From the IMG/VR virus record IMGVR_UViG_2728369185_000014: a DNA stretch of 42,922 nt; one strand, written 5' to 3'. The notes under the pieces are model-generated. The model was not told the DNA's origin. It was given only the letters and a program-made list of their open reading frames with translations, and searched no databases. The DNA is from a virus. Taxonomy: Duplodnaviria; Heunggongvirae; Uroviricota; Caudoviricetes. Shown piece after piece: positions 4,429-41,127 of the stretch. The translations under genes and the position numbers were made by a program. The first letter of the stretch is position 1. The number at the start of each line of letters is the position of its first letter.

Positions 4429-4433
4429 CCGTT

Positions 4434-4730: not shown

Positions 4731-4805
4731 GGCTGAACTCCTGAAAATGGCTGTGAAAATATCGCCCGCGAAATGCCAGGCTGATTAGGAAAACAGGAAA
4801 GGGGG

Positions 4806-5082: not shown

Positions 5083-5154
5083 GGTGTGCTCCTTATTTAT
5101 ACATAACGAAAAACGCCTCGAGTGAAGCGTAATTGGTATGCGGTAACGCCGCGC

Positions 5155-19994: not shown

Positions 19995-19996
19995 TA

Positions 19997-21172
19997 TTAG
20001 CTGTCTCTATATCTTTTGAGTTCATCATAATTTGCCTGACTCAATTTTATCACAATTTCGCATTTGTTGTCAGTGAGAATTACAGGCTTATTTGACTTTT
20101 CGTCTCCAATAGCTCCACGCATTATTTTCAACTTAAAATTATTGTCGTTATCTGCCACTTCAATTGTAAGCGCGCTTTCAGCTGCTTTAGGAGTTGGTTC
20201 AAATTGAGGGTCAATCTGGAAACCATTAAGATTAACAAAATCGACAAACGTTCCCTTACATTTGTGTGAATCAGTCAGGCATGAGTCAATTATTTTTGAA
20301 ATATCCTCTATCTTAACGGACTTATTTCCGTGTTTATCTTTTGATTTTTTTTCCAGTAAGGATTTAACTTCATTGTCAATAGTATCACGCAGTACACGAC
20401 CGAGTGAGTTTTTACTAGCAAAAATATCTATAGCACTGAATAATTGCTGAATGCTTCTTTTATTGTCCGAATCATGTCGGCAACCTAATGAGTCTTTGAA
20501 AAAATCGCTTTTAGATTTACCTTGCAAGAAATGTACATATGAGTCACCCTTGTTTTCTGGATAACTGGCTTCGAATAAAGTTAAATCGAACATCGCAGCC
20601 TGCCGTAAGGCATCGGTATTAATTGGATTTAATCTTGTTGGGGTCAACTTATCCGAATCAAAGTCATAGGCGCTTTGTTTATCAACCATTACGATTAGAA
20701 GTTTCCCCAAATCCTCTGGTTCGGTAGACTTATAGTGGATGAAAACAACGCTCCCCCCCTGAAGTTGGGCAACTCTCGATTCGTTATTAGCATTATGTTT
20801 AAGCTTCTCTATTATAGCTCTAGATAAATCAATGAATTCATTATTCTTATTAATGTATTTTTTTAGGATCGTAGGAATGGATGAAGGGTTGTGATCTGAG
20901 TCTAGGAAGTTATGAAATTTGTTTTTTCGGCTAAATTTTTTCTCAATTCTGGTTATGAATTCAGATGTGACTTCATTTTTTAGATCCCAAACTTCACCTA
21001 ATCGATAATCAAATGCTCTTGAATCATTTTTTTCAAGATTTGCTGTTACAGCACCAATAGGAAAGTACGATTGTTTGCCCAGCACTACAACATGAGGCGT
21101 GGCACCGCATTTATCGCAAGCTACAGTTGGGTCGTCAAGAACATTGCCACATTCTAAACAAGTTATATCCAT
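19997..21172 (-). CDS. Zinc-ribbon protein with a possible NdpA/YejK-like nucleoid-associated domain (391 aa), first gene of the Q-S cassette
   Basis: N-terminal CxxC...CxxC (CLECGNVLDDPTVACDKCG); central ...GGSVVFIHY...YVHFLQGKSKSDFF... resembles the YejK/NdpA family as I recall it; 2-nt gap to the downstream ORF. Confidence 0.55.
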   Translation of the reverse strand: MDITCLECGNVLDDPTVACDKCGATPHVVVLGKQSYFPIGAVTANLEKNDSRAFDYRLGEVWDLKNEVTSEFITRIEKKFSRKNKFHNFLDSDHNPSSIPTILKKYINKNNEFIDLSRAIIEKLKHNANNESRVAQLQGGSVVFIHYKSTEPEDLGKLLIVMVDKQSAYDFDSDKLTPTRLNPINTDALRQAAMFDLTLFEASYPENKGDSYVHFLQGKSKSDFFKDSLGCRHDSDNKRSIQQLFSAIDIFASKNSLGRVLRDTIDNEVKSLLEKKSKDKHGNKSVKIEDISKIIDSCLTDSHKCKGTFVDFVNLNGFQIDPQFEPTPKAAESALTIEVADNDNNFKLKIMRGAIGDEKSNKPVILTDNKCEIVIKLSQANYDELKRYRDS

Positions 21173-23662: not shown

Positions 23663-23830
23663 GAGGTTGCCCCGTATTCAGTGTCGCTGATTTGTATTGT
23701 CTGAAGTTGTTTTTACGTTAAGTTGATGCAGATCAATTAATACGATACCTGCGTCATAATTGATTATTTGACGTGGTTTGATGGCGTAGATGCACGTTGT
23801 GACATGTAGATGATAATTATTATCATTTTG

Positions 23831-23990
23831 CGGGTCCTTTCCGGCGATCCGACAGGTTACGGGGCGGCGACCTCGCGGGTTTTCGCTATTTATGAAAATT
23901 TTCCGGTTTAAGGTGTTTCCGTTCTTCTTCGCCGTAACCTAATGTTTTTATTTAAAACACCCCCTGAAAAGAAAGGAAACGACAGGTGCT
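23831..23990 (+). promoter_or_regulatory. cos packaging site (cosQ-cosN-cosB); cosN 12-mer at about 23862..23873
   Basis: GGGTCCTTTCCGGCGATCCGACAGGTTACG followed by GGGCGGCGACCT and CGCGGGTTTTCGCTATTTATGAAAATTTTCCGG, matching the lambda cohesive-end region as I recall it, immediately upstream of Nu1. Confidence 0.85.
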
Positions 23991-24050
23991 GAAAGCGAGC
24001 TTTTTGGCCTCTGTCGTTTCCTTTCTCTGTTTTTGTCCGTGGAATGAGCA

Positions 24051-24570
24051 ATGGAAGTCAACAAAAAGCAGCTGGCTGACATTTTCGGTGCGAGTATCCG
24101 TACCATTCAGAACTGGCAGGAACAGGGAATGCCCGTTCTGCGAGGCGGTGGCAAGGGTAATGAGGTGCTTTATGACTCTGCCGCCGTCATAAAATGGTAT
24201 GCCGAAAGGGATGCTGAAATTGAGAACGAAAAGCTGCGCCGGGAGGTTGAAGAACTGCTGCAGGCCAGCGAGACAGATCTCCAGCCAGGGACTATTGAGT
24301 ACGAACGCCATCGACTTACGCGTGCGCAGGCCGACGCACAGGAGCTGAAAAATGCCAGAGACTCCGCTGAAGTGGTGGAAACCGCATTCTGTACTTTCGT
24401 GCTGTCGCGTATCGCAGGTGAAATTGCCAGTATTCTCGACGGGATCCCCCTGTCGGTGCAGCGGCGTTTTCCGGAACTGGAAAACCGACATGTTGATTTC
24501 CTGAAACGGGATATCATCAAAGCCATGAACAAAGCAGCCGCGCTGGATGAACTGATACCGGGGTTGCTGA

Positions 24571-24596
<26 letters not shown>
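24051..24596 (+). CDS. nu1: Terminase small subunit Nu1
   Basis: 181 aa, matching lambda Nu1 (MEVNKKQLADIFGASIRTIQNWQEQGMPV...). Confidence 0.95.
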
Positions 24597-28277
<3,681 letters not shown>

Positions 28278-28297
<20 letters not shown>

Positions 28298-29994: not shown

Positions 29995-30239
29995 ATGTCG
30001 ATGTACACAACCGCCCAGCTGCTGGCGGCAAATGAGCAGAAATTTAAGTTTGATCCGCTGTTTCTGCGTCTCTTTTTCCGTGAGAGCTATCCCTTCACCA
30101 CGGAGAAAGTCTATCTCTCACAAATTCCGGGGCTGGTAAACATGGCGCTGTACGTTTCGCCGATTGTTTCCGGTGAGGTTATCCGCTCCCGTGGCGGCTC
30201 CACCTCTGAATTTACGCCGGGATATGTCAAGCCGAAGCA
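29995..30239 (+). pseudogene. E: Major capsid protein E, 5' fragment (codons 1-82) cut by an insertion
   Basis: MSMYTTAQLLAANEQKFKFDPLFLRLFF...TPGYVKPKH matches the lambda E N-terminus, then diverges into 9 unrelated codons and a stop at 30270. Confidence 0.9.
30230..30239 (+). repeat. Left copy of a 10-bp direct repeat AGCCGAAGCA (putative att core)
   Basis: The same 10-mer is at the right junction (41118..41127); both copies lie exactly where E homology is lost and regained; placed by hand. Confidence 0.7.
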
Positions 30240-30402
30240 CTTAGCATGGCTTTCTGAGGCTTTCGTGTAGTTGCTGGTTTTTACACTTAATCTTTTGATA
30301 ATAAAGAATAAGTTTATCTGGTGCTTTCACTGAATTTTCCTCGTTATCTGTGTGTTGCAATCATCTCTGTATTGCAGCTTGTATTGCTTTTTGGGGCTAA
30401 AA

Positions 30403-31638
30403 ATGGCTGGCGAGAACAAACTGAGCGACAAAGCGCTTAAAGGATATCTGGGGAAACCCAGAGAAAAGCAGATCACCATTGCTGATGGAAAGGGGCTTTC
30501 TATTCGTGTGAGTACTAAAGGGGCTGTGAGCTTTGTTTTCTTCTACAGGTTAGCAGGTGGCCGGGCTGCTCCGGTCTGGCTAACGTTGGGTAAATATCCT
30601 GATATGTCACTCAAACAGGCAAGGGAAAAGCGCGACGAGTGCCGTGGTTGGTTGGCTGACAAACGTGATCCGCGTATCCAGATTAAGATTCAGGCTGAAG
30701 AACGCTTAAAGCCGGTCACTGTGGAGGATGCACTAAATTACTGGTATGAAAATTACTGTAAGGTGCGTCGTAAAACTCATGCTGTAACGCTTGGCAGATT
30801 TCGAAAGCATATCTTTCCCTATATCGGTCATTTGCCCGTAAATGACACTCACCTATATGAATGGCTGGACTGTTTTGACCGAATTAAACGTAATGCACCA
30901 GTTATGGCGGCGTATGTTTTTTCTGACACTAAATTAGCTCTTCGTTTTTGTCGGGTACGCCAGTACGCGACGTGTGATGCTTTAAAGGATTTGCGCATGA
31001 GTGATGTGGGGCAGATTGCAGGTAAGCGGGATCGGGTTCTGGATGAAGCCGAACTCGGCCAGCTCTGGAAGGCAATTTTTGTCGAGCCTGATTTAAAACT
31101 AATGTCTGAATACACGCGAAAAATGTTTGTGCTTTGTACAGTATTTGGATGTCGAATGAGTGAAGCCCGATTATCAGAATGGAGCGAATGGGATCTCGAA
31201 AGTTGGGTTTGGACTGTACCAAAAGATCACTCAAAAACTGGTGTTGAAATCGTCAGACCAGTACCTGAAATTCTACGACAGTGGGTAACGGATGTTCACG
31301 AAGAGACAAAACATACTGGTTATGTGCTGGGAAGTCTGCGAATTAGAGAAAGCGTAAGCAAGATTGGGGGGAAAATCGGTAAACGTTTGGGCCATGAAAA
31401 ACAATGGTCACTACACGACCTTAGAAGAACGCTATCTACTCATCTAAGTGATCTCGGTGTTGAATTTTATGTAGTAGAACAACTGTTAGGCCATGCGCTA
31501 CCTGGCGTGGCAGGTGTTTACAACCGGAGTAAGTTTATGGCTAAAAAACTGGATGCTCTGGAACTCTGGACTACATATCTCAATAGCATCGCAGGTGCTG
31601 ATTCAAAAGTGACAATCCTCAAACAAAAGGTTGGTTAA
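30403..31638 (+). CDS. int: Tyrosine integrase (P4-family type) of the inserted element
   Basis: 411 aa from the internal ATG; N-terminal arm-binding-type region and a C-terminal ...HDLRRT...LLGH...GVYNRS region typical of tyrosine recombinases; first gene inside the left junction. Confidence 0.85.
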   Translation: MAGENKLSDKALKGYLGKPREKQITIADGKGLSIRVSTKGAVSFVFFYRLAGGRAAPVWLTLGKYPDMSLKQAREKRDECRGWLADKRDPRIQIKIQAEERLKPVTVEDALNYWYENYCKVRRKTHAVTLGRFRKHIFPYIGHLPVNDTHLYEWLDCFDRIKRNAPVMAAYVFSDTKLALRFCRVRQYATCDALKDLRMSDVGQIAGKRDRVLDEAELGQLWKAIFVEPDLKLMSEYTRKMFVLCTVFGCRMSEARLSEWSEWDLESWVWTVPKDHSKTGVEIVRPVPEILRQWVTDVHEETKHTGYVLGSLRIRESVSKIGGKIGKRLGHEKQWSLHDLRRTLSTHLSDLGVEFYVVEQLLGHALPGVAGVYNRSKFMAKKLDALELWTTYLNSIAGADSKVTILKQKVG

Positions 31639-31639
31639 C

Positions 31640-31867
31640 ATGAAAAAAATGGCAATTGTTGATAAAAAGGGTCTGGAGTACATTCCTAACATTGACCGAA
31701 TGATCCGTGAGAAAGAATGTCGGGAGCTAACCACTCTTGCGAACAGCACACGCTGGAAGCTGGAGAAGGAAGGAAAATTTCCTAAGCGGATCAAGATTGG
31801 TTCCACTGCTGTTGCATATCGTCTTTCAGAAGTGCAGGCATGGATTCGAGGTGAGTGGGTAGTTTAA
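31640..31867 (+). CDS. alpA: AlpA-family transcriptional regulator/excisionase
   Basis: 75 aa starting 2 nt after the int stop; ...RELTTLANSTRWKLEKEGKFPKRIKIGSTAVAYRLSEVQAWI... fits the AlpA/Vis winged-helix family. Confidence 0.7.
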   Translation: MKKMAIVDKKGLEYIPNIDRMIREKECRELTTLANSTRWKLEKEGKFPKRIKIGSTAVAYRLSEVQAWIRGEWVV

Positions 31868-31936
31868 ATTATCTCAGAATAAAATATTATGAATTACTGA
31901 TTTGAGAATTTGTACTCAAATCAGTAATAACATTCT

Positions 31937-32473
31937 TTATAAGAGATTAAATCCAAATAAAGAGTAATCATATACCGGGGTGCATTGCATTCCACTGAAT
32001 ATGCTGATGTTTTTTTCTGTTTCTATCCTTTTTTCAATAAGTTGTTGTATATTTTTACAGTACAATTTGTGTGTGATGTTATTATCGTAAGCCTGATATA
32101 GCAACGTCAATGTTGACGCTAGGAAACATACAGATAAAATTAAAGTAACATATGCGGTTTTTTTATTTTTTGTCCATGATCTATTTGTTTGTGAAATATA
32201 AAGAATTCTGATGTGGATAATGGTGAGAGACAATAGCAGGCCACTCAATAAAATAAGTATTGGGTTTGCGTATTTTATTAATGGTTGAGAGCAAAAAACT
32301 ATTATAGCTCCTGTGACTGCGTATGAGAAAAAGGAGTAATTAAACTTCTTACTCCTTCTCTCAAGTATTTTAATTTCATCTTGTGTGGGGGTTTTAGATG
32401 CCTCTAATATAAGTTTATTGAATGTTTCTGTTATCTTGTTTTTTGTGTTTGTGGCTATTTTTTTTAGATTCAT
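31937..32473 (-). CDS. Accessory membrane protein (178 aa, about three TM helices)
   Basis: Very AT-rich ORF with hydrophobic segments (AVTGAIIVFCSQPLI, ILILLSGLLLSLTIIHI, YVTLILSVCFLASTLTLL); no homologue recognised. Confidence 0.5.
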   Translation of the reverse strand: MNLKKIATNTKNKITETFNKLILEASKTPTQDEIKILERRSKKFNYSFFSYAVTGAIIVFCSQPLIKYANPILILLSGLLLSLTIIHIRILYISQTNRSWTKNKKTAYVTLILSVCFLASTLTLLYQAYDNNITHKLYCKNIQQLIEKRIETEKNISIFSGMQCTPVYDYSLFGFNLL

Positions 32474-32823
32474 AGCATTCTAACTCCCTTAACTTATTTA
32501 TTACTTTCTCTTTATGATAAGAGAGGGGAATGACTTGGTAAAGTGATTTGTCATTAATAATGATAATCCTTGCGATAAATATTTCTGCAAGTTATTTATC
32601 TGTTTGTTGCTATCTTGTTAAGCGTTGGGTGTGGTTTATGTTTGGAGCGACTTTATTTAATCGTGATTTTATGGATTTATATTTATATCCTGTAAGATAA
32701 GCGCATGTTAGTTCAGGAGTAGTGTCAGATAAAATTATTCGGAGTAGAACTACCTTTTCTGTTTATTGCCAGTATTTACATAGCAATGCGCCGTAGTTAC
32801 TCACATCACGGCGCTGATACTAA

Positions 32824-33126
32824 TTATTCAGATTCTTTGGCTTTACGCCGCTGGAGTTCTTCACGAGCGACGGCTACGAGTTGCCCGATTTCCTCCGCTG
32901 CCTTGATGCCGATTTGTTCGACCTTAGCTAAGGCATCCAGTGAAGACACGAGGGGATTTTCTCCGCTTCCTTCTGCCTGGCGGCGGGCGATCTCACCGCG
33001 CATGGCGGTTACTATGAATCCGGCGTTGCTCTCGCCGTCCAGTTTTACGGATTCCATGCCCTCCATAACATCGTGGGGAACCCTGATCGTTGTCATTTGC
33101 GATTTTGCATTTTTGTATACAGACAT
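32824..33126 (-). CDS. Ribbon-helix-helix-type DNA-binding protein (100 aa)
   Basis: N-terminal ...MTTIRVPHDVMEGMESVKLDGESNAGFIVTAMR... has the pattern of CopG/Arc-type RHH domains; divergent from the rightward operon. Confidence 0.5.
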   Translation of the reverse strand: MSVYKNAKSQMTTIRVPHDVMEGMESVKLDGESNAGFIVTAMRGEIARRQAEGSGENPLVSSLDALAKVEQIGIKAAEEIGQLVAVAREELQRRKAKESE

Positions 33127-33334
33127 AGTTAATCACCAATTTGTTATGTGTATATCACTATACACAAAAGTGATATATAAAAACACTTGCAATGTATATC
33201 ACCACAATATAATGTATATCTCACATTATGGTCGCTATGTATCTCACAATGATCGATTCATAAAAACGACGAAACCCGGCAGTGCGCGAACACTAACCGG
33301 GCTTCTAACCAAACCGTTAAACGAGGTAACGATT
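33127..33334. promoter_or_regulatory. Divergent promoter region with TGTATATCAC/GTGATATA repeats
   Basis: AT-rich intergenic segment with at least four copies of TGTATATC(A/T)C in both orientations, between the RHH gene and the rightward operon. Confidence 0.45.
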
Positions 33335-33700
33335 ATGGCTGGAACACAGCATACCCAAACTCACCCTAAATTTATATACACCTTTCTGGCACTACACCAC
33401 GACCGCATGGCAGATGGAGCAACTACGGTACATGTAGCCGCTGACACGCTGGTTGATGCCCGCAAGATGGTTAAGGAGATGGGCTATACTGCGGCTTTCT
33501 GGAAAGGGCGTGAAGAAAACACGCTGTTTATTCAGAAATGCGAAAACAATTTCATCTGGCGTTTTATCGCCCTGAGTACGGCACAACCGCGCGTGATTCA
33601 CATCGTGGCCACCAGCGAACAGGAAGCCCGCCAGCAATCCCCGGCTGGTTGCGTGAGGGTATTCGCCGCCCGTATTCGTCAGGAGGTATGCCGTGCTTAA
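33335..33700 (+). CDS. Hypothetical protein (121 aa), first gene of the island rightward operon
   Basis: Internal ATG of the long track ORF; the upstream part of that ORF is antisense to the RHH gene. Confidence 0.45.
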   Translation: MAGTQHTQTHPKFIYTFLALHHDRMADGATTVHVAADTLVDARKMVKEMGYTAAFWKGREENTLFIQKCENNFIWRFIALSTAQPRVIHIVATSEQEARQQSPAGCVRVFAARIRQEVCRA

Positions 33701-33878
33701 AACCTTCCGTGTATTTGCCCGAGCGGTTAACCCACGAGGCCACACAATTGGTATCACTCAGAACGTGAAGGCTGTTAATGTTCAGACGGCTATTGCTGTG
33801 GTGAGAAGCGAATCATCAGAATATGGCTTATCACAAGTCATTATTTCAGCAGTGTATGAATTAAAAGAGGTGCATTAA
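33693..33878 (+). CDS. Hypothetical small protein (61 aa)
   Basis: Track ORF overlapping the previous stop; same operon. Confidence 0.4.
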   Translation: MLKTFRVFARAVNPRGHTIGITQNVKAVNVQTAIAVVRSESSEYGLSQVIISAVYELKEVH

Positions 33879-34069
33879 TGCAGGAAATTACATTACACGA
33901 AGCCGCTGAACGTGCGCACCAGACAGAAATTATTTGCCGCCTTCTTGAGGTATACCCGAACAAAATTACAGATGCTGATATATCCGCACTGGCGAGCCTA
34001 CTGGCGCGTCTTTCGGGAAGTGTCGCTAGTTTTTTGATTGAGGAAGAAAGTAAGCTGGTGGGGGATTAA
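33878..34069 (+). CDS. Hypothetical small protein (63 aa)
   Basis: Track ORF with stop/start overlap to its neighbours. Confidence 0.4.
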   Translation: MQEITLHEAAERAHQTEIICRLLEVYPNKITDADISALASLLARLSGSVASFLIEEESKLVGD

Positions 34070-34291
34070 ATGAATACAGAACGGGAAGTCTTTTTTAAAT
34101 TGTTAGCATGTGCAGAAAGTTCATTAACTTTAAATAATTCAGCAAAAGCAATATTAAATATGTGGCTTGATTGCATAAATGACAATGAAGATGCAAATAT
34201 TGCTTATGGCCTGTTGTCACTTATTGATGAAGCAGCAGAAAAACTCAATGACGCAATAAATAGTGCCCTGTTATCAAATAAGTCGAGTTAA
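34070..34291 (+). CDS. Hypothetical small protein (73 aa)
   Basis: Track ORF, AT-rich, contiguous in the operon. Confidence 0.4.
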   Translation: MNTEREVFFKLLACAESSLTLNNSAKAILNMWLDCINDNEDANIAYGLLSLIDEAAEKLNDAINSALLSNKSS

Positions 34292-34308
34292 GTCGAGGAA
34301 TAAATAAT

Positions 34309-34608
34309 ATGGAAATGAAAAATTCTGGCTTTATTGCCAGCGGCCCCGCTCGGCCTGAATTTATGAACGGCGATATTTACCGCGATAAATACGGCGGCAC
34401 GGTAACGATTAAAGGCGTGGCAGAACGGCGCATCACTTACCGCCGTGAGGGGTATAGCTATGACTGCGTGATGCCTGTTTATCAGTTCCGGCGTGATTTT
34501 TCCCTGGTATATGCCGCACCTCGCAGTAAGCCCACCAGCAGGGAAAAAGCGCGGGGAAACATCCAGAAAATGAAAAGCATGATTAACGCATTCAGGGGCA
34601 AAAAATGA
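34309..34608 (+). CDS. Hypothetical basic protein (99 aa)
   Basis: Track ORF whose stop overlaps the primase start. Confidence 0.4.
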   Translation: MEMKNSGFIASGPARPEFMNGDIYRDKYGGTVTIKGVAERRITYRREGYSYDCVMPVYQFRRDFSLVYAAPRSKPTSREKARGNIQKMKSMINAFRGKK

Positions 34609-36356
34609 AACTGGCACCGAACTTAAAAAAACAGCCACGCGACAGACTGACAGAGGTAATCATCTTTGCAGGTAGTGATGCGTGGAGCCATGCGAAAGAG
34701 TGGCAGGAATGGGCGGGTAAACATATTGCCGCCGACGATGTGCCGCCTGTCGTGCTGGCTGATGAGCAACTGAAAAACATCATCGATTACCGGATCATTG
34801 ATGAAGATCGTCAGTGTGTGCGTGTTTACCGCGCAGGACATATCACAGAGCACAGCATGACGCAGATTGTTACGTTACTGGCTGTGGCTGGAGTGAAGAC
34901 CGTACACGAATACGCGGGGATTACTGACACCAGCCCCGTGGATTTATCCGACCAGTTGCCGCGACTCAAAGAGGAATGCGAGCGTGGGGAAAGTCTGGTG
35001 CTTAATCTTCCGACGAAGCAAAAGGCGCAACTTTCACAGATGGCAGACAGTGAACGTGCACAACTACTTGCCGATCGCTTTGATGGTGTGTGTGTTCATG
35101 CAGAAAGTGAAATCGTCCACGTATGGCGCGGCGGGGTATGGTGTCCGGTCAGCACAATGGAGCTGAGCCGCGAAATGGTGGCGATCTATTCAGAGCACAG
35201 GGCCACGTTCAGCAAACGTGTAATCAATAACGCCGTGGAAGCGTTAAAAGTTATTGCCGACCCCATGGGGGAGCCGTCCGGTGATTTACTACCGTTCACT
35301 AATGGTGTGCTTAACCTGAAAACGGGGGATTTTTCTCCGCACTTACCGGAGCACTGGAGCACCACGCACAATGGCATTGAGTACACGCCACCAGTAGCAG
35401 GGGAAAACATCCGCGATAATGCGCCAAATTTCCATAAATGGCTTGAACATGCTGCAGGAAAAGACCCGCGCAAGATGATGCGTATATGTGCCGCGTTATA
35501 CATGATTATGGCGAACCGCTACGACTGGCAGATGTTCATTGAGGCCACCGGAGACGGGGGAAGCGGTAAGAGTACATTTACCCATATTGCCACCCTGCTT
35601 GCTGGCAAACAGAACACCGTAAGCGCAGAGATGACATCACTCGATGATGCAGGAGGGCGCGCGCAGGTTGTCGGGAGTCGTCTTATCGTCCTTGCCGATC
35701 AGCTGAAATATACGGGGGAAGGCACGGGCATCAAGAAAATCACGGGAGGCGATCCCGTTGAAATTAACCCGAAATATGAGAAGCGATTCACGACGATAAT
35801 AAGGGCGGTGGTACTGGCAACCAATAACGACCCGATGATCTTTACCGAACGGGCCGGAGGTGTGTCACGCCGTCGGGTGATTTTCCGGTTCGACAACATT
35901 GTAAGGGAGGACGAAAAAGACAAGGAATTACCGGAAAAGATAGCGGCAGAAATCCCCGTAATTATCCGCCGCTTGCTGGCTAATTTTGCTGACCCTGAAA
36001 AGGCACGGGCTTTATTACTGGAACAGCGTGACGGTGATGAAGCTCTGGCAATAAAGCAGCAAACGGATCCGGTTGTTGAGCTTTGCGCGGCGCTGGAGTT
36101 TCTGGAGGAAGCTCGTGGGCTAATGATGGGCGGTGGTGGTGACACCGTGAAGTACACGACCAGAAACAGCCTTTACCGTGTCTATATGGCCTTCATGGCA
36201 TATACAGGAAAGGGGAAATGTTTGAGCGTGAATGAGTTCGGAAAGGCTATGAGGTCAGCGGCGAAAGTTTACGGATATGAATATATTACGCGAAAAGTTA
36301 AGGGAGTCACGCAGACCAACGCAACGACTACTGATGATTGCGATGCGTTTTTATAA
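34605..36356 (+). CDS. Primase-helicase (P4-alpha/D5-type NTPase)
   Basis: 583 aa with Walker A GDGGSGKST and downstream helicase-like motifs; immediately followed by an iteron array. Confidence 0.8.
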   Translation: MKLAPNLKKQPRDRLTEVIIFAGSDAWSHAKEWQEWAGKHIAADDVPPVVLADEQLKNIIDYRIIDEDRQCVRVYRAGHITEHSMTQIVTLLAVAGVKTVHEYAGITDTSPVDLSDQLPRLKEECERGESLVLNLPTKQKAQLSQMADSERAQLLADRFDGVCVHAESEIVHVWRGGVWCPVSTMELSREMVAIYSEHRATFSKRVINNAVEALKVIADPMGEPSGDLLPFTNGVLNLKTGDFSPHLPEHWSTTHNGIEYTPPVAGENIRDNAPNFHKWLEHAAGKDPRKMMRICAALYMIMANRYDWQMFIEATGDGGSGKSTFTHIATLLAGKQNTVSAEMTSLDDAGGRAQVVGSRLIVLADQLKYTGEGTGIKKITGGDPVEINPKYEKRFTTIIRAVVLATNNDPMIFTERAGGVSRRRVIFRFDNIVREDEKDKELPEKIAAEIPVIIRRLLANFADPEKARALLLEQRDGDEALAIKQQTDPVVELCAALEFLEEARGLMMGGGGDTVKYTTRNSLYRVYMAFMAYTGKGKCLSVNEFGKAMRSAAKVYGYEYITRKVKGVTQTNATTTDDCDAFL

Positions 36357-36364
36357 AAAATGGC

Positions 36365-36615
36365 AATGGTTATCTACCTTGTCTACCTGACTGAAATAAA
36401 ATACTTTTATTTCAATGTATTAATGCAGGTAGATAACTATTTTTCACTGTCTACCTGTTATCTACCTTATCTACCCATTTTTGTAGACAGGTAAGGAGAC
36501 GGGTAGAGATGAGGTAGACAGCTATTTGGGGCTGTCTACCTCCCTGAAACCCGCGCCATTACTGGCCTGATAACTAATCAGGTAGACAAGGTAGACAAGG
36601 TGGTGGTGCACAAAA
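36365..36615. repeat. Iteron array (GGTAGACA/TGTCTACC, at least 10 copies) with an AT-rich spacer: putative island origin
   Basis: Repeated 8-9-mers in both orientations (TTGTCTACC, AGGTAGATA, CAGGTAGACAAGGTAGACAAGG...) flanking an A/T-rich segment directly after the primase gene. Confidence 0.7.
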
Positions 36616-36645
36616 AACTTTTTAAACGAGGGGGTAAAAATAAAA

Positions 36646-36888
36646 ATGCACACATCAGGAAAACTGAACAAACATATAAAGCCACATTACCGCGCCCTTG
36701 ATATGGCTGAACACTGGCTAAGGGTGGCGATTAAGGCAATAGACCGCAACGCCGGGGAAGGATACGCGAAAGCACATCCCGAACTGATAAGCGCATTCAT
36801 GACAACGGCGGCTGCAAACTTTGCCACGCTGACCGAACGGGAGATTGCCGAAGCGGAGGAAGTGACAACCATCAATATTAAGTCCTGA
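36646..36888 (+). CDS. Hypothetical protein (80 aa)
   Basis: Track ORF between the origin and ssb. Confidence 0.35.
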   Translation: MHTSGKLNKHIKPHYRALDMAEHWLRVAIKAIDRNAGEGYAKAHPELISAFMTTAAANFATLTEREIAEAEEVTTINIKS

Positions 36889-36899
36889 GAGCAGGCAGC

Positions 36900-37349
36900 A
36901 TGACGGCGCAAATAGCAGCTTACGGGCGGCTGGTGGACGACCCACAGGTAAAACATACCAGCAAGGGAACACCCATGACACTGGCACGGATGGCGGTATC
37001 TTTGCCATGCAGCCAGGCAGATGACGGAACGGCGACGATGTGGTTATCTGTGCTGGCGTTTGGCAGACAAGCCGACGCGCTGGCAAAGCATCACAAAGGC
37101 GAACTCCTGAGCGTGGCGGGTAATATGCAGGTGAGCCAGTGGAGCGGACAGAACGGGGAAACGCGGCAGGGCTGGCAGGTTATCGCAGACAGCGTAATCA
37201 GTGCCAGAACGGTGCGACCGGGCGGCAAAAAAGGTCAACAGGGGCAGGCTACTGATGCACTGAACAGAGCAAAACAACAGGCAGATCAGCAAGGAAGCCA
37301 TCCACCAGTGGGAGATAATGAGCAATGGGGAGATGATATTCCGTTTTAA
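36900..37349 (+). CDS. ssb: Single-stranded DNA-binding protein
   Basis: 149 aa with an OB-fold-like N-terminal region, a Gly/Gln-rich linker and the acidic C-terminal tail ...DDIPF characteristic of bacterial/phage SSB. Confidence 0.75.
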   Translation: MTAQIAAYGRLVDDPQVKHTSKGTPMTLARMAVSLPCSQADDGTATMWLSVLAFGRQADALAKHHKGELLSVAGNMQVSQWSGQNGETRQGWQVIADSVISARTVRPGGKKGQQGQATDALNRAKQQADQQGSHPPVGDNEQWGDDIPF

Positions 37350-37565
37350 ATATTGCCAATAAAAAAGGCCGGAAAAAATATATTTTCCGGCATGCTACAT
37401 AAATCCCGACCAAAGGGAGTGAAGATATTAACACTAATTATCCGCGCTGAAGTTGTCATCCCAAAACTTTATACAACATTGCACTCGGTTGCATGTGTTA
37501 GCATGACAAATATCGGTGATAGCATATATCCACAATTATTTTTAATGAATGTAAAGAGGATGAGT

Positions 37566-38606
37566 ATGGTTGATTTATATTCGCCTGCCCAGCTTGTGCA
37601 GGTGGCTAATGCAGAAGAGGTGCAAAAAAAATTAAATGCATTGTTTACCAGTTTGTTTTTCACTCGCTCGGTAATGTTTGAATCAAGAGACATTATTCTT
37701 GATACAATCGACGATCCAAATATCCCAATTGCAGCGTTTTGTTCTCCTATGGTGGGTAGTAAAGTTTCACGTGACGAAGGGTACGAATCAAAGACAATTC
37801 GTCCAGGCTATATGAAGCCGAAAAGCAGCATTGATCCAAATAAGTTAGCTGTGCGCCCTGCTGGTGTATCACCTGAGCAATACAATGCTTTTGGAGCGCG
37901 TAATATTAAAGTTAAACAGGCGATTGTAAATCAGGCTAAAGCTATTCGTGCACGTATTGAATGGCTTGCCGTTCAGGCAATCACAACGGGGAAAAATATC
38001 ATTGAGGGCGATGGCATTGAACGCTATGAACTGGACTGGAATATAAAACCACAAAATATTATCACGCAGTCCGGCGGTGCTGAGTGGTCAGGTAAGGATA
38101 AAGAAACTTTTGATCCAAATGATGATATTGAGAGCTACGCAGAATTTAGTGAGGGCGTCACTAATATCATCATTATGGGCGGTAATGTATGGAAGAAATA
38201 CCGTTCATTCAGAGCGATAAAAGAGGCTCTGGATACCCGTCGTGGTTCTAATTCCGAACTGGAAACGGCCCTTAAAGACCTTGGTGATTCGGTGAGTTTT
38301 AAAGGGTATATGGGCGATGTTGCGATTGTTGTATACAGCGGGCGTTATACCGACGAGGACGGAACTGAAAAACATTTCCTTGATCCTGATTTGATGGTGC
38401 TTGGCAATACGGCTCTTCAGGGGATTGTCGCCTATGGCGGTATTCAGGATCCGGAGCTAATCCGAATGGGGCTGACTAAAGCCGAACTTGCACCGAAAAA
38501 CTATATTGTGCCTGGTGATCCGGCTATTGAATATGTGCAGACACATTCAGCACCACAGCCAATACCGGCCCGCATCAATCGTTTTGTTACCGTTCGCATT
38601 GGCTAA
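37566..38606 (+). CDS. Major capsid protein homologue (lambda E-like)
   Basis: Alignable to lambda E along its length (e.g. ITQSGGAEWSGKDKETFDPNDDIESYA vs ITQSGGTEWSKRDKSTYDPTDDIEAYA; DTRRGSNSELETALKDLG vs DTRRGSHSELETAVKDLG; GDVAIVVYSG); start at the ATG 6 nt after AAGAGG. Confidence 0.8.
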   Translation: MVDLYSPAQLVQVANAEEVQKKLNALFTSLFFTRSVMFESRDIILDTIDDPNIPIAAFCSPMVGSKVSRDEGYESKTIRPGYMKPKSSIDPNKLAVRPAGVSPEQYNAFGARNIKVKQAIVNQAKAIRARIEWLAVQAITTGKNIIEGDGIERYELDWNIKPQNIITQSGGAEWSGKDKETFDPNDDIESYAEFSEGVTNIIIMGGNVWKKYRSFRAIKEALDTRRGSNSELETALKDLGDSVSFKGYMGDVAIVVYSGRYTDEDGTEKHFLDPDLMVLGNTALQGIVAYGGIQDPELIRMGLTKAELAPKNYIVPGDPAIEYVQTHSAPQPIPARINRFVTVRIG

Positions 38607-38615
38607 GGGGGAGCA

Positions 38616-38957
38616 ATGGCTACTCATTACACTGAACTCATGGCTGGCACTGAAGCACTGGTGACTACGCTGGGGATATTTTCAGCTAATAAAGGGGTAA
38701 TTCCTGCATTTACGCCACTGATGCAGGAAGATGCAACAGGTGCACTGGTGGTATGGGATGGTTCGAGCGTAGGTAAAGCGGTTTATGTTTCCGCTGTACA
38801 AATCGACACCGCGAAAAAAACACAGGCTCAGGTCTATAAGACAGGTGTCTTAAATGTTGATGCTCTGAACTGGCCTGAGTCTGTAAAAGAACTGTCAGTA
38901 AAGATTGCAGCGTTTGTTGGCTCAGGTATTTCTGTTCAGCCGCTGGCTCGTGTGTAA
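38616..38957 (+). CDS. Head decoration protein homologue (lambda D-like)
   Basis: 113 aa; ...VVWDGSSVGKAVYVSAVQ...AFVGSGISV parallels lambda D ...[18 protein letters not shown]...[10 protein letters not shown]; directly downstream of the capsid homologue, as D precedes E in lambda. Confidence 0.65.
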   Translation: MATHYTELMAGTEALVTTLGIFSANKGVIPAFTPLMQEDATGALVVWDGSSVGKAVYVSAVQIDTAKKTQAQVYKTGVLNVDALNWPESVKELSVKIAAFVGSGISVQPLARV

Positions 38958-38968
38958 AGGGGGATACA

Positions 38969-39352
38969 ATGCAGAATCATTACAATGACCTTAAGCCAAT
39001 TGCCGAAATGATGTATCCGGATCCAGCAGTAGAGGAATTAAAGGCTATTGCTGACAAAATGCGTTTAAGCGAGCGTCTTGTTGATATGAATCAGGTGATG
39101 GAACTTACAACCCTGAGTCGTCGTACACTGCTAAACCTTGAAGCACGTGGAGAGTTCCCCGAACGCGTGCAGGTTACGGAAGGGCGTAAGGCCTGGTATT
39201 TAAGCGAAGTGATCGACTGGATAAACAATATTCCGCGCGCTTCTGAATATTGCCGCGTACCTGTCCCAAAAAAGCCAGATGCGGCGCTATGCCTCAAGAT
39301 TGAGCGTGTACGCCGCAATGCGCGGGATGGTCGCTATAAGCTGATTGGTTGA
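38969..39352 (+). CDS. AlpA/excisionase-like winged-helix protein (127 aa) next to the island cos
   Basis: Central ...MNQVMELTTLSRRTLLNLEARGEFPERVQVTEGRKAWYLSEVIDWI... fits the AlpA/Xis-type HTH; sits immediately upstream of the island cos. Confidence 0.5.
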   Translation: MQNHYNDLKPIAEMMYPDPAVEELKAIADKMRLSERLVDMNQVMELTTLSRRTLLNLEARGEFPERVQVTEGRKAWYLSEVIDWINNIPRASEYCRVPVPKKPDAALCLKIERVRRNARDGRYKLIG

Positions 39353-39379
39353 TGAAATTAGGGCCCGTTCTGGCTGGCG

Positions 39380-39445
39380 GGTCCTTTCCGGCGATCCAGA
39401 ACGTTACGGGGCGGCGACCTCGCGGGTTTTCGCTATTTATGAGCA
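39380..39445 (+). promoter_or_regulatory. Island cos site (cosN 12-mer at about 39408..39419)
   Basis: GGGTCCTTTCCGGCGATCC...TTACGGGGCGGCGACCTCGCGGGTTTTCGCTATTTATGA is nearly identical to the prophage cos at 23840..23900, then diverges. Confidence 0.75.
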
Positions 39446-39568
39446 TTTTTAGGGGACTGGTGGTGGTTTTGTTGTTCGCTATATCTGTATGAATAATAAG
39501 AGAAAAACACAATCAACACACCAACCTGAAACAGTAATTAAGTTGTGGTATCAATGAAATTGCACCTG

Positions 39569-40096
39569 ATGAACAAAAAAAACATGGCAAAAAGTTGCCG
39601 TGTAAGCGCCACTGCGTTCGATAAGTGGGGAGTGATTCCCGTCGAGCGTAAGGGCCGCGAGGCGTTTTATGATGTCGCCAGTGTAATAGATAATCGGGTT
39701 AACAATGCAATCAGCCAGATTACAAACGAAACGGGCGAGATTGATGATGATGAACTCCTACGAGTCAGGATCAGATTGCTGACAGCACAGGCAGAGGCGC
39801 AGGAGCTTAAAAACGAGCGCGAACGCGGCGACGTTATTGATACAGCGTTTTGTATATACGTGCTTTCAAAACTGGCGAGTCAGATTTCTTCAATCATGGA
39901 CAGCCTGCCGCTTGCCATGACAAGGAAGTTTCCCGACATGAAGCCGTCTATGCTGGATGGACTGAAAAAAGAAGTTATCAGAGCCTGTAACGCATGCGCA
40001 AAACTTGACGAAAACATACCGCTGATGCTGTCCGATTATCTGATGGAAACTGCCGGAAACGTACCGGATAAGTTGCAGCTGAATAAAGATAAGTAA
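39569..40096 (+). CDS. Terminase small-subunit paralogue (Nu1-like)
   Basis: MNKKNMAKSCRVSATAFDKWGVIPV... and ...RLLTAQAEAQELKNERERGDVIDTAFCIYVLSKLASQISSIMDSLPLAMTRKFPD... parallel lambda Nu1; start uncertain (the track ORF begins at 39545). Confidence 0.7.
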   Translation: MNKKNMAKSCRVSATAFDKWGVIPVERKGREAFYDVASVIDNRVNNAISQITNETGEIDDDELLRVRIRLLTAQAEAQELKNERERGDVIDTAFCIYVLSKLASQISSIMDSLPLAMTRKFPDMKPSMLDGLKKEVIRACNACAKLDENIPLMLSDYLMETAGNVPDKLQLNKDK

Positions 40097-40107
40097 CGTA
40101 GTACGCT

Positions 40108-40389
40108 ATGACTGAATCCGAAATACTGCGATTAATCCGCCGTGCTTGTGGAATCAGCAAGCAGCATGACGAACAGGCCACGCAGCCGGACAGCGTGATC
40201 GCCGAAAATTACGCGCGTGTTGTTGCTGATGTGATGCGCCGTGATGGTATTGAGCTTAACGGCGTGGATATGCGCGACATACGGATCAGATTCCTTGAGT
40301 TGCTGGCATACCGTCGCCGTTCTCAACAACGAAGGGAGAGCGCGAAAAACACTTATCAGTGGAAGAAGCCGGAACGGTTGCGGCGGTAG
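40108..40389 (+). CDS. Hypothetical basic protein (93 aa)
   Basis: Track ORF downstream of the Nu1-like gene. Confidence 0.35.
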   Translation: MTESEILRLIRRACGISKQHDEQATQPDSVIAENYARVVADVMRRDGIELNGVDMRDIRIRFLELLAYRRRSQQRRESAKNTYQWKKPERLRR

Positions 40390-41117
40390 ATTCCTGATAT
40401 TCAGGAAAACCACGAATCCGGGGGTTTTACTGGCGCGGTGTACACGGTGGAACGTATAGCGTTACCTGACTTATTGCATTGTAAAAAGTTGAAAGGCACG
40501 GCCTGTAAGATGGGATGTTGTGAGTAGTTTAAAGCTACCCGCAAATTCTTTCGTTGTGCTGGCACAGGCGGTTAAACCGTCGGTAACTGGATAATCCCCA
40601 CTGGGGGAAAAGCTGGCTACATCCCTCACATCTGAGGACTGATAACGCAAAATTGCGTTGGCTGGCAGAGTGCAAATTTGCACGATGGCCTAACCCATTG
40701 ATTCTTTCGAAAACCCCCATTGGGGGAGAACGGGGGAATAAACCTGACTCATTGATTTTTCCACAATCCTTAATTTGAGGAAGCTGGATAGTTGCACTAC
40801 CCAAAAAGTGCAGTACCCACATAGCTGCTTAATAGCGTTTATTTTTTCCGCACACCTCAAATCTGAGAAGGCCGGAATGATGACATGGCAGGATTATGAT
40901 TCCTTGATTTCAAGGAGTCCTCCAGTGTGAAAATGAAATTATCTGGGCTGGTGGGTGAGTTGCTGATCTGCAACTCGGCTATGAAACTTAATAATCGAAC
41001 AGCATGTAAATTCATTTCTGTGTATTGCAGCATGTATTGCAACATAGTCATTCTGGTAGAGATTATGCTCTATTTTTCCTCTTATATCATTCACATACTT
41101 ACGTCATTGACTCATGT

Positions 41118-41127
41118 AGCCGAAGCA
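41118..41127 (+). repeat. Right copy of the 10-bp direct repeat AGCCGAAGCA (putative att core)
   Basis: Identical to 30230..30239; E codons resume immediately after it; placed by hand. Confidence 0.7.

Follow-up and report, generated by a model that had tools for sequence, protein, structure and literature searches.

We consider it likely that positions 39431-40096 of the window, the whole 42,922-nucleotide stretch of viral DNA analysed here (IMG/VR record IMGVR_UViG_2728369185_000014), form a packaging-specificity cassette, in which a satellite island pairs a private cosB with a small terminase that would recruit the large terminase, gpA, of its helper prophage. This island small terminase (TerS) would probably make the helper packaging motor load satellite DNA. 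An earlier note on this DNA had proposed such a redirection module, in which TerS reads the island cos and borrows gpA. The proposal is supported, at the level of sequence comparison, by the strict co-inheritance of TerS with its candidate site R3', by sister islands that carry a lambda-type cosB, by the constraint on the DNA-binding domain of TerS and by the absence of a large terminase (TerL) gene from the island. The type of element (11capE; PMC10111431) and the gene ("TerS" of EcCIIHE3034; PMC6092414) have already been published, and what would be new is the proposed mechanism of the packaging variant.

The satellite and the relevant helper features are located as follows.

30230-41127, + strand: satellite of ~10.9 kb, delimited by att core repeats and a split prophage gene E
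31640-31867: AlpA gene of the satellite
23830-24596, + strand: helper cos and Nu1, with cosQ, cosN (23862-23873), lambda-type R3/I1/R2/R1 and the Nu1 gene (24051-24596)
24571-26496, + strand: ORF of gpA, the large terminase of the helper, presumably recruited by the island small terminase

The helper cos and Nu1 are the system with which the island cassette would compete. The N-terminus of the helper gpA looks lambda-type. The satellite carries a 10-bp att core, AGCCGAAGCA, at both ends (30230-30239 and 41118-41127). It interrupts prophage gene E, and rejoining the flanks gives back ...GYVKPKHEVNPQMTLRRL... in that gene. Further, the satellite is co-oriented with the late gene E of the lambdoid prophage, and its insertion site (E:Phage_cap_E:80) is that of helper-embedded PICIs (HE-PICIs). 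The gene set is also that of an HE-PICI, with a P4-type integrase (Arm-DNA-bind_3 and Phage_integrase domains), AlpA and a D5-type primase but without a full virion module; the other genes include those for an SSB, a capsid-E-like and a decoration-like protein. Between 30240 and 41117, the only virion-type genes are the capsid-E-like, decoration-like and small terminase genes. We assign the satellite, which lies in prophage gene E, to the published 11capE type of helper-embedded PICIs. Its bounds and insertion site agree with the description of 11capE by the HE-PICI authors, who detected zero plaque-forming units from their composite (10.1101/2022.07.18.500453). In the window, the helper portal gene contains an in-frame stop (annotated as "internal stop" in RefSeq), so that the composite may be unable to package anything alone.

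The island cos region and its neighbours contain the following features.

38969-39352, + strand: gene of a 127-aa AlpA/excisionase-like winged-HTH protein (Pfam Phage_AlpA), the second AlpA paralogue of the island
39379-39391, + strand: cosQ-like GGGTCCTTTCCGG, identical to prophage 23832-23844 and kept in all aligned island cos
39409-39420, + strand: cosN 12-mer GGGCGGCGACCT, the cohesive-end sequence, identical to the helper cosN
39431-39443, + strand: block CGCTATTTATGAG, at bp 23-35 counted from the nick, invariant in 15 aligned island cos
39457-39476, + strand: R3', CTGGTGGTGGTTTTGTTGTT, bp 49-68 from the nick, at the R3 position of lambda and N15
39490-39494, + strand: TGAAT/TGATT motif in conserved columns, at the centre of the R3'-R2' dyad
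39514-39528, + strand: R2', CAACACACCAACCTG, bp 106-120, an inverted, degenerate copy of R3'
39554-40096, + strand: island small terminase TerS, Nu1 family, 180 aa (Pfam Phage_Nu1; "terminase small subunit" in RefSeq)
40108-40389, + strand: gene of a 93-aa protein of unknown function (PHROG 1561), downstream of and outside the swapped cassette

The cosN 12-mer occurs twice in the window, at 23862 in the prophage cos and at 39409 in the island, where ~0.11 occurrences would be expected by chance; two copies were found in 0/100 shuffles. A repeat search paired 23830-23932 with 39377-39479 (81% over 103 nt), and within this pair 39377-39442 is identical to the prophage cos at 62/66 bases, including cosQ and the cosN 12-mer. 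The earlier note had described a ~65-bp segment (39380-39445) as nearly identical to the prophage cos, and over that interval we counted 60 matches in 66 bases with the cosN 12-mer present. The shared block comprises cosQ, cosN and CGCTATTTATGA, and the similarity between the island and helper cos ends about 35-42 bp past the nick. The last stretch common to island and helper is the CGCTATTTATGAG block, which is also, as judged from the alignments, the putative left recombination boundary of the cassette. The island cosN was the same as that of the co-resident helper in both available pairs, namely this window and the Kosakonia pair L003/L037, which carries the rare cosN GGGCGGCAGACT.

Downstream of the prophage cos lie R3, R2 and R1 of the lambda type (GTTTCCGTTCTTCTT and similar sequences), which are missing from the island, as had been noted before. 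The previous description of an absent cosB was incomplete in that cosB is replaced by an N15-like R3 and an inverted R2-like element. This island cosB' consists of a conserved (GGT)3-TTGTTGTT at the R3 position and an inverted copy near the R2 position. R3' is unique within the window, and we propose it as the binding site of TerS. It is in register with R3 of N15 (7/10 at bp 51-60), the (GTT)3T of N15 R3 aligning with the (GGT)3T of the island; N15 R3 has been mapped to bp 48-60 (PMC9026076). The position of R2' is fixed despite the divergence of the spacer: zero indels were found between the nick and R2' in 12 lineages with diverged spacers, even where cosN differs. The core of lambda R2 lies at a comparable position (bp 114-119).

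The dyad formed by bp 49-63 and bp 106-120 is centred at bp 84.5, where the TGAAT/TGATT columns are conserved. Because inspection of the R3'-R2' spacer by eye for an IHF consensus made just this conserved motif evident, we infer only that it is a possible bend or IHF-type site. R3'/R2' was also considered as a promoter and rejected as an obvious one, since a search of the + strand at 39350-39560 detected nothing like a sigma-70 promoter. An Rfam scan gave no match in the island cos region; the sole match in the window was the lambda cIII thermoregulator (5037-5095).

The TerS gene begins 146 bp after the nick. It encodes an orphan small subunit: no large terminase gene was found in the island, nor after TerS in 54 evaluable loci. 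The ORF is intact, without disruption between start and stop. Of its two start candidates, 39545 and 39554, the ATG at 39554 is most likely the real start, because WP_001588504.1 has a length of 180 aa in RefSeq and members of the family share the N-terminus M-x-x-H-L-(M/L)-N-K-K. The protein matches Pfam Phage_Nu1 (PF07471; 87 bits, cut-off 30, profile positions 33-162) and, at E 2.3e-51, PHROG 57 ("terminase small subunit"). Its identity with the helper Nu1 is 38% over the whole length, C-terminus included, which agrees with the earlier description of a diverged Nu1 homologue that keeps the C-terminal pattern.

TerS is predicted to consist of an N15-gp1-type winged-HTH domain followed by a Nu1-like C-terminal part for oligomerisation and TerL binding. 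The DNA-binding domain aligns with those of Nu1 and N15 gp1 and keeps the conserved Trp and the wing Lys; it is 72-79% conserved within the family and 32-41% identical to that of the helper Nu1. The central self-association region is the part closest to the helper Nu1 (54%). The C-terminus can be aligned over its full length with residues 141-181 of Nu1, with which it shares the motif IP-x-(L/M)-L-x-(D/E)-Y. Over the C-terminal 40 residues the identity with the helper Nu1 is 39% and the tail is the least conserved part of the protein, so that binding of TerS to gpA is plausible but not assured. Comparison with the divergent E. coli alleles L070/L071 gave dN/dS values of 0.16-0.21 overall and 0.02-0.035 for the DNA-binding domain, which is the most constrained part of TerS. 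The TerS of Superficieibacter is a mosaic in which the core and tail are lambda-like (84% and 63%, respectively).

With a pLDDT of 66.6, the AF2 model of TerS has moderate to low confidence, and none of its Foldseek matches reached significance; we used it for secondary structure only. Residues 5-58 were modelled as helix-helix-hairpin-helix (pLDDT ~70-80), for which the Foldseek matches to MerR-type winged-HTH proteins were not significant (E 0.2). A sequence search of the PDB with the single protein gave no meaningful match, and a profile built from island proteins only matched lambda TerS weakly (6hn7_B, E 0.013). A profile that included the helper Nu1 also matched lambda TerS in the PDB, but this result is circular.

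When IMG/VR was scanned with R3' as the anchor (109 loci with 10 cosN variants), island-type TerS was present downstream in 103/103 evaluable loci and R2' in 107/109 loci. Further, R3' was present in 26/26 TerS-bearing loci checked. Among 50 cos sites, all island-TerS loci have R3', nearly all phage Nu1 loci have the lambda R3, and the RppA-type islands have a site of their own; the CFT073 prophage, with a different type of Nu1, matched neither R3' nor lambda R3. As many of these loci are related by descent, the counts overstate the number of independent events. R3' is exact in divergent loci of Scandinavium and Buttiauxella, though cosN differs there. Three islands on the L075 backbone that have no TerS carry the lambda R3/R2/R1. 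Homology to the Rpp-type and lambda-cosB-type islands stops at ~bp 41-42 and resumes just before the gene of the 93-aa protein, which is 73% identical to its EcCICFT073 homologue and common to Rpp-type islands. The cassette thus appears to be swapped as a whole unit between island types.

The TerS gene was found in about 14% of complete E. coli genomes, O157:H7 and ExPEC lineages included, and is under purifying selection in at least seven genera (that of E. coli and at least six other enterobacterial genera). None of the 50,697 phage records examined was >48% identical to TerS. Of the loci from a scan of genome contigs, only two were of the island type and most were true lambda Nu1 loci, many of which lay in unrelated taxa and are probable lambda contamination. 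As virion-derived evidence, we searched virome contigs for ends at the island nick and for circular assemblies of 10-11 kb, and found neither.

The 127-aa gene beside the island cos is an intact ORF and, as had been claimed, encodes an AlpA-like winged-helix protein (Phage_AlpA, PF05930; 34.9 bits, cut-off 21; PHROG 2790). Its sequence matches that of PDB 8c3t (E 1.6e-10), the GIsul2 excisionase, which was also the top Foldseek match of its AF2 model (pLDDT 71.9; TM 0.86). The two superpose with an rmsd of 0.9 Å over 52 columns at 44% identity, and the protein has the excisionase-type winged-helix fold. Canonical AlpA is without the 34-aa N-terminal and 40-aa basic C-terminal extensions of this protein. 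The suggestion that the HTH protein might assist in recognition of the island cos was not supported. In EcCIIHE3034, O157:H7 and 38/109 IMG/VR loci, an unrelated gene (137 aa) fills the slot next to cos and TerS; the replacing gene is c1502-like in those 38 loci and in L070, L071 and L081. BLASTP revealed no similarity between c1502 and the AlpA-like protein. The slot was taken by an unrelated gene in roughly half of the sampled occurrences. Since such a gene occupies it beside the same pair of cos and TerS, the cassette does not require the AlpA-like gene, which we rejected as a member of the packaging module. The most likely role of the AlpA-like protein in this island lineage is that of an excisionase or a regulator of transcription, not that of a packaging factor.

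In the mechanism that we favour, the island would retain cosQ and cosN of the helper, which are the parts read by gpA, and the helper cosB would be exchanged for R3' and the inverted R2' around the central motif. The winged-HTH domain of TerS would bind R3'/R2', while the Nu1-like C-terminal two-thirds of the protein would oligomerise and recruit the helper gpA. The large subunit would then nick the island cosN, and concatemers of the island would be packaged into heads made by the helper. The helper Nu1 should not use the island cosB', by analogy with the inability of lambda to package N15 DNA, so that packaging of the island would depend on, and be favoured by, its own TerS, and helper packaging may suffer interference. 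Two marked TerS-encoding PICIs of E. coli (IHE3034 and 18098) were not transferred after induction of resident prophages (PMC6092414; Fillol-Salom 2018), and the IHE3034 island encodes a TerS of the present family. The right helper may simply have been missing in these strains.

Another way of obtaining R3' specificity would be that TerS is active only when assembled with the helper Nu1 into mixed oligomers, thereby poisoning helper packaging, as in the Rpp systems. The TerS gene lies exactly at the position of rppA, downstream of a similarly laid-out cos, heterocomplexes of RppA and TerS provide a precedent (PMC6739421), and the closeness of the central self-association region to that of the helper Nu1 would suit mixed oligomers. 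Nevertheless, we regard this mode as rather unlikely. TerS keeps the full Nu1 C-terminus, whereas Rpp proteins (139-154 aa) have no TerL-binding tail, so that a bridge through the helper TerS is not needed. Further, BLASTP of TerS against RppA (c1503) produced no alignment at E ≤ 100, the island-only profile gave no PDB match to the RppC chain, and the linker by which RppC grips lambda TerS is ~17 residues shorter in the island protein. This mode is compatible with the recruitment of gpA by TerS, and both could operate together.

It is very unlikely, in our view, that TerS serves interference only, as a decoy that titrates gpA or the helper Nu1, the island cos being read by the helper Nu1 if it is used at all. 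Factors that interfere with packaging are common in satellites (Ppi of SaPIs, Rpp) and a Nu1-like C-terminus would permit competition for gpA, but such a decoy leaves the invariant R3'/R2', the strict co-inheritance and the strong constraint on the DNA-binding domain unexplained. Moreover, the sister islands without TerS have switched to the helper cosB, implying that the helper Nu1 does not use R3'. We consider it highly improbable that the cos-terS region is a relic without current function, either the captured left end of an N15-like phage or a leftover of recombination with a helper, even though the "late zones" of HE-PICIs are reported to capture late genes of helpers and the DNA-binding domain of TerS is N15-like. 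A relic would be hard to reconcile with an intact ORF under purifying selection in many genera, its frequency among E. coli genomes, the lack of a close relative in phages and the fact that the TerS gene is never beside a large terminase gene in the evaluable loci.

Returning to the favoured mechanism, in which TerS reads the private cosB and recruits gpA, we tentatively extend it to a joint reading that, as a whole, is more doubtful than its starting point. CosB and its reader might form a hot-swappable cassette, exchanged by recombination at the universally conserved cosQ-cosN-CGCTATTTATGA segment and existing in at least three forms: helper cosB alone, an R3-PICI with Rpp, and N15-type R3'/R2' with an orphan TerS. 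The full-length TerS might resemble the ancestor of Rpp, which could have arisen by replacement of the C-terminus, and it might permit satellite packaging independent of Nu1. Such a cassette might also exploit a known one-way specificity, in which an N15-type TerS reads the lambda cos while lambda TerS does not read the N15 cos.

Only one solution to the packaging of cos satellites in Gram-negative bacteria is known, namely Rpp, which requires the helper small terminase. The cassette appears to be a second, widespread solution, in which the satellite would come with both an entire small subunit and an N15-like cosB to match it. If confirmed, it would explain how the "TerS-encoding" PICIs of E. 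coli, so far untransferable in the laboratory, are mobilised, and would give a direct handle on the origin of Rpp proteins. It would also provide a natural R3-plus-R2 variant of N15 recognition for dissecting the positioning of the large subunit at cosN, and an orthogonal cos/TerS pair for engineered transducing particles.

The Rpp system of EcCICFT073 shares its backbone and gene order with the island, a capsid-like and a decoration-like gene being followed by the slot gene, cos, the specificity gene and the 93-aa gene. In both, cosQ and cosN resemble those of the helper, another sequence takes the place of cosB and the specificity gene directly follows cos (PMC6739421; PMC9026076). Thus, the position after a PICI cos with a differing cosB is common to the two, whereas sequence similarity and the short, tail-less form are not. 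RppA of EcCICFT073 (144 aa) has only a Nu1-like N-terminal HTH, without a tail that binds TerL, and depends on forming heterodimers with the helper TerS (PMC6739421), whereas the island TerS is full-length. In addition, the Rpp type has a single CACCACCACCAC site, in contrast to R3' and the inverted R2' of the island.

The phage small terminase closest to TerS is N15 gp1 (47.6% overall, ~59-61% in the DNA-binding domain). The recognition helix (AFDKWGV) is identical in the two proteins, which also have a short wing and deletions in the linker in common. Both cosB are compact, and N15 R3 has a G-x-T triplet repeat like that of R3', in register at bp 51-60. In contrast to the orphan TerS, gp1 is followed by its own large terminase. 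Further, N15 cosB contains R3 only, to which the island adds the inverted R2', and the C-terminal part of gp1 is 68% identical to that of lambda Nu1, compared with 38-43% for TerS. N15 packages lambda DNA, but lambda cannot package N15 DNA (PMC9026076). Lambda Nu1 belongs to the same protein family as TerS and has the same domain order, and lambda cosB (R3-I1-R2-R1) has an R3 and an inverted R2 spaced from the nick around a central conserved site in a comparable manner. However, the recognition-helix residues of TerS differ from those of Nu1 and its wing is 3 residues shorter, the island has no R1 and other R sequences, and TerS starts at bp 146 but lambda Nu1 at bp 191.

In SaPIs of Staphylococcus aureus, the satellite small terminase TerS_S pairs with the helper TerL and recognises satellite DNA only, as proposed here, but packaging of SaPIs is of the headful (pac) type, their small terminase belongs to an unrelated protein family and interference is the task of a separate protein (Ppi), whereas the island system is of the cos type. 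The cf-PICIs and P4 are also satellites of enterobacterial phages with cos; cf-PICIs likewise encode a small terminase, and P4 uses the helper cos in unaltered form and is not known to carry a terminase gene. The cf-PICIs carry a whole capsid and packaging set, and the island, without portal, protease and large terminase, is not one of them. The published 11capE resembles the present island in the gene E site, the 10-bp att core, the size and the gene order (Tommasini, Mageeney & Williams 2023; PMC10111431). It corresponds to the L076-type variant with lambda cosB: the published element is described as having no terS and 258 bp (90%) in common with the helper cos (PMC10111431), whereas the present island carries the TerS/R3' cassette.

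The window contained two copies of the cosN 12-mer GGGCGGCGACCT, at 23862 and 39409 (approximately 0.11 occurrences expected by chance). The surrounding sequences (23830-23932 and 39377-39479) were 81% identical across 103 nt, and 62 of the first 66 positions of this pair of cos repeats were identical, consistent with the near-identical cos segment described in the earlier note. The 66-nt block common to the helper and the island contained three elements.

Elements of the shared 66-nt block (coordinates of the island copy)
39379-39391, cosQ, GGGTCCTTTCCGG
39409-39420, cosN
Third element, CGCTATTTATGA

The helper and island cos diverged approximately 35-42 bp past the nick. The prophage cos ran on into the lambda R3-I1-R2-R1 array and then Nu1 (24051-24596), and this continuation was not present 3' of the island cos. 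Alignment of both regions thus confirmed divergence past cosN and absence of the lambda-type array. The claim that cosB is absent held for R3-I1-R2-R1 only, because conserved sites, R3' (39457-39476) and R2' (39514-39528), stand in its place. As the earlier note had proposed, the island cos was bracketed by an AlpA-like gene and a Nu1 homologue, both intact.

Over its full length, the Nu1 homologue (TerS, 39554-40096) shared 38% identity with Nu1 of the co-resident helper. The TerS start was best set at the ATG at 39554, in agreement with the RefSeq call and the conserved N-terminus of the family, giving an ORF of 180 aa that was not disrupted. TerS covered positions 33-162 of the Nu1 Pfam model and aligned to the extreme C-terminus of Nu1. 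Conservation within the family was highest in the DNA-binding domain (72-79% when distant members were compared with the window; 32-41% identity to helper Nu1) and lowest in the last 40 residues (35-42%). In comparison with the divergent E. coli alleles (L070, L071), dN/dS was 0.16 for the whole protein and 0.02-0.035 for the DNA-binding domain (dS approximately 0.9). The AF2 model (pLDDT 66.6) comprised an N-terminal helix-helix-hairpin-helix and then long helices; MerR-type wHTH proteins were its matches in the PDB, none of them significant. No large terminase gene was found in the island, or after TerS in any of the 54 loci with enough downstream sequence. In Superficieibacter sp. (L004:6001-6504), TerS was a mosaic of an island-type DNA-binding domain and a lambda Nu1-like core (84%) and tail (63%), a pattern that points to recombination with the Nu1 gene of a helper and agrees with the TerL-facing part being replaced as a module. 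Very short contigs from unrelated taxa (L009-L055; Kitasatospora, Paenibacillus, Bradyrhizobium, Oceanobacillus and others) carried many lambda Nu1 matches of approximately 38% identity, which look like lambda DNA contamination of assemblies.

Among 50,697 phage records, the protein closest to TerS was gp1 of phage N15 (47.6%; lambda, 38.9%). Identity in the DNA-binding domain was approximately 59-61%, the recognition helix AFDKWGV was identical, the wing was equally short and the linker deletions were alike.

We gathered island-type loci from other genera (Kosakonia, L003; Superficieibacter, L004; Enterobacter/Citrobacter, L056-L069; Scandinavium, L072; Buttiauxella, L074) and E. coli variants (L070, L071, L075-L081), and stacked their cos sequences gap-free from the nick onward. 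R3', CTGGTGGTGGT(G/T)TTGTT, was invariant at bp 49-65, TGA(A/T)T was kept at bp 82-86, and R2', CAATACACC(C/A)AC(C/T)TG, an inverted, degenerate copy of R3', lay at bp 106-120. These elements were kept while the spacers diverged beyond recognition, and the R3'/R2' features persisted in Scandinavium and Buttiauxella despite a different cosN. Further, the interval from the nick to R2' contained no indels across 12 lineages. The length of the (GGT)n tract varied on its 5' side, with five GGT repeats in L070 and a G-run in L071. The R3' motif occurred once in the window, and no promoter-like site overlapped the island R3'/R2' region on the + strand. Since the positions match those of the lambda R3 and R2 cores (bp 54-59 and 114-119), the island has a putative R3-bend-R2 layout like that of lambda; however, its R sequences differ and it has no R1.

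N15 R3 was located at bp 48-60 by linker scanning (PMC9026076). Its sequence is GAGGTTGTTGTTT, in which (GTT)3T lines up at bp 51-60 with (GGT)3T of the island (7/10 identical). N15 packages lambda DNA but lambda is unable to package N15 DNA (PMC9026076), which provides a precedent for a cosB that helper Nu1 cannot use.

When 50 cos sites were compared, R3' was present at every island-type TerS locus and lambda R3 at nearly every phage Nu1 locus. The CFT073 prophage, with a different Nu1 type, had neither, and the rppA locus of EcCICFT073 (L002) was paired with the site CACCACCACCAC. An independent IMG/VR scan anchored on R3' yielded 109 loci with ten cosN variants; R2' was present in 107, and island-type TerS lay 3' of R3' in 103/103 evaluable loci. 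In the two cases in which the same contig bore a helper cos, island cosN was identical to helper cosN, and in Kosakonia the rare cosN GGGCGGCAGACT was common to the island and its co-resident helper. Thus, cosN goes with the large subunit of the helper, and R3' with the small subunit of the island.

Up to bp 41 past the nick, three loci (L076, L077 and L080) showed 99.7% identity to the TerS-bearing island L075, yet they had no TerS and bore lambda-type R3/R2/R1. In these sister helper-embedded PICIs (HE-PICIs), an Abi_C-domain gene followed the lambda-type cosB, with no terminase gene (4345-5276). This arrangement matches the published 11capE element, which 'lacks terS' and has 258 bp at 90% in common with the helper cos (PMC10111431). 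Further, EcCICFT073 and an O157:H7 island (L070) showed 95% homology up to approximately bp 42, which was absent over cosB and rppA/terS and returned just before the gene for a 93-aa protein, indicating that the cassette is the unit of exchange. An inverted partial cosQ-cosN copy (published as 'cos2') lay just 3' of rppA/terS in both (L002:8275-8339; L070:9690-9764), so that inverted cos repeats flank the cassette there. No 'cos2' copy is present in the window island; 11 nt separate the TerS stop from the start of the 93-aa gene.

The AlpA-like gene 5' of cos (38969-39352; 127 aa) matched Pfam Phage_AlpA. Its central domain has a good excisionase/AlpA fold (AF2 pLDDT near 90 at residues 40-80; match to 8c3t, TM 0.86), with family-specific N- and C-terminal extensions. 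Homologues formed a tight 127-aa family across Enterobacteriaceae, and the gene order was capsid-like, decoration-like, AlpA-like, cos in every context examined. The earlier note had suggested that this HTH protein might take part in recognising the island cos. However, EcCIIHE3034, an O157:H7 island and SCU-122 carried a c1502-like gene in this slot, yet the same R3' and TerS, and we rejected the AlpA-like protein as a packaging component because the cos/TerS pair was found without it. The slot gene in the IMG/VR loci was AlpA-like in 59, c1502-like in 38 and other in 8; among 5,426 complete E. coli genomes, TerS occurred in 762-792 and the AlpA-like gene in 365-407; and L076, L077 and L080 had the AlpA-like gene without TerS. 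The AlpA-like gene is therefore not an obligatory companion of the cos/TerS pair. The helper-embedded (gene E) state was found in 14/18 evaluable AlpA-like loci versus 0/6 c1502-like loci, which were chromosomal islands (IMG/VR, L083 onward). This association may reflect lineage rather than function, although a functional reading, e.g., a role in leaving the helper late operon by excision or in transcription across it, could be considered. We conclude that the AlpA-like protein most likely serves its lineage as a regulator or recombination directionality factor. In EcCICFT073, c1502 (L002:7083-7496; homologues in L070, L071 and L081) matched the C-terminal end of PHROG 'head maturation protease' (positions 495-567 of 583, E 1e-8), the Nu3/scaffold-like part; the slot thus carries a scaffold-like or an AlpA-like gene.

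The prophage's major capsid gene, E, was split, with codons approximately 1-90 ending at 30230-30239 and the rest restarting at 41118-41127; the 10-bp core AGCCGAAGCA was present at both junctions. The 10.9-kb island encodes a P4-type integrase, canonical AlpA, D5-type primase and SSB, followed in our inventory by capsid-E-like, decoration-D-like and AlpA-like proteins, cos, the Nu1-like protein and the 93-aa protein. It is an HE-PICI of the 11capE type (site E:Phage_cap_E:80), published by Tommasini, Mageeney and Williams (PMC10111431); E. coli GN06489 and bloodstream isolates related to it carry an identical sequence. While splitting helper E, the island brings a capsid-E-like gene (346 aa) and a decoration-D-like gene (113 aa) of its own (37566-38957); no portal, protease or scaffold gene was found within it. 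According to the literature, EcCICFT073 transfer does not need the PICI capsid genes.

The helper portal gene (lambda B homologue, 26696-28297) contained an in-frame stop at 27164-27166 and is labeled a pseudogene in RefSeq ('internal stop'). The helper in this strain probably cannot build heads, so that mobility of the composite may require a second helper. Elsewhere in the prophage, a 508-aa large serine recombinase (Resolvase, Recombinase and Zn_ribbon_recom; 13662-15188) in the early-right region is unusual for a lambda-like nin region. Two antisense cargo genes between the late regulator and the lysis genes (18780-21172, - strand; 404 aa, no Pfam match; 391 aa, NA37 nucleoid-associated-protein-like domain) may be a moron or defence locus. 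A 300-nt direct repeat (11423-11722 and 12302-12601; 95% identity, 879 bp apart) lay in the replication/nin region.

In the mechanism that these comparisons best support, and that we consider probable, TerS would bind R3'/R2' via its N15-type winged helix and its Nu1-like C-terminal part would assemble with helper gpA; this assembly would direct cosN nicking and packaging of island DNA, and helper Nu1 would be unable to initiate on the island cosB. An Rpp-like mode, in which mixed oligomers of TerS and helper Nu1 would be required, is compatible with this mechanism but considerably less likely. The constraint on the DNA-binding domain and R3', together with the change to lambda cosB in islands that have no TerS, is hard to square with TerS acting purely as a decoy, which we regard as improbable, and equally with cos-terS being a functionless relic, which seems more improbable still. 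Caution regarding packaging by TerS and gpA comes from the portal stop and from the two TerS-encoding PICIs tested in 2018, which showed no transfer (PMC6092414); one of these, the IHE3034 island, has the same TerS protein family as the window. Further, the HE-PICI authors saw no plaques from their composite (PMC10111431), and we found no virion-type contig ends.

Prior publications cover the element type, the Rpp mechanism, the existence of E. coli PICIs that 'encode TerS' and, for SaPIs, the concept of a small terminase carried by a satellite. In the searchable literature, we did not find a cognate N15-like cosB' with R3' and R2', strict R3'/R2' pairing with an orphan TerS, a cassette that comes in three forms with a fixed recombination boundary, or the N15 affinity of the TerS DNA-binding domain.

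The gene order of EcCICFT073 equals that of the island (capsid-like, decoration-like, c1502 of 137 aa, cos1, rppA of 144 aa, 93-aa gene), and the 93-aa proteins are 73% identical. The cos-flanking genes, c1502 and rppA, are unrelated to the AlpA-like gene and TerS. The proposed Rpp site (bp 53-64; L002:7603-7622) is the reverse complement of the (GGT)3 core (window 39459-39467) at an almost equal distance from the nick, which may reflect chance, slippage-prone low complexity or shared ancestry. RppA retains the Nu1-like N-terminal HTH alone (weak Pfam match, Nu1 positions 3-36). Rpp is without the TerL-binding tail and acts as a heterodimer with helper TerS (PMC6739421). Judged from its alignment to the C-terminus of Nu1, the island TerS would possess the part that is missing in Rpp.
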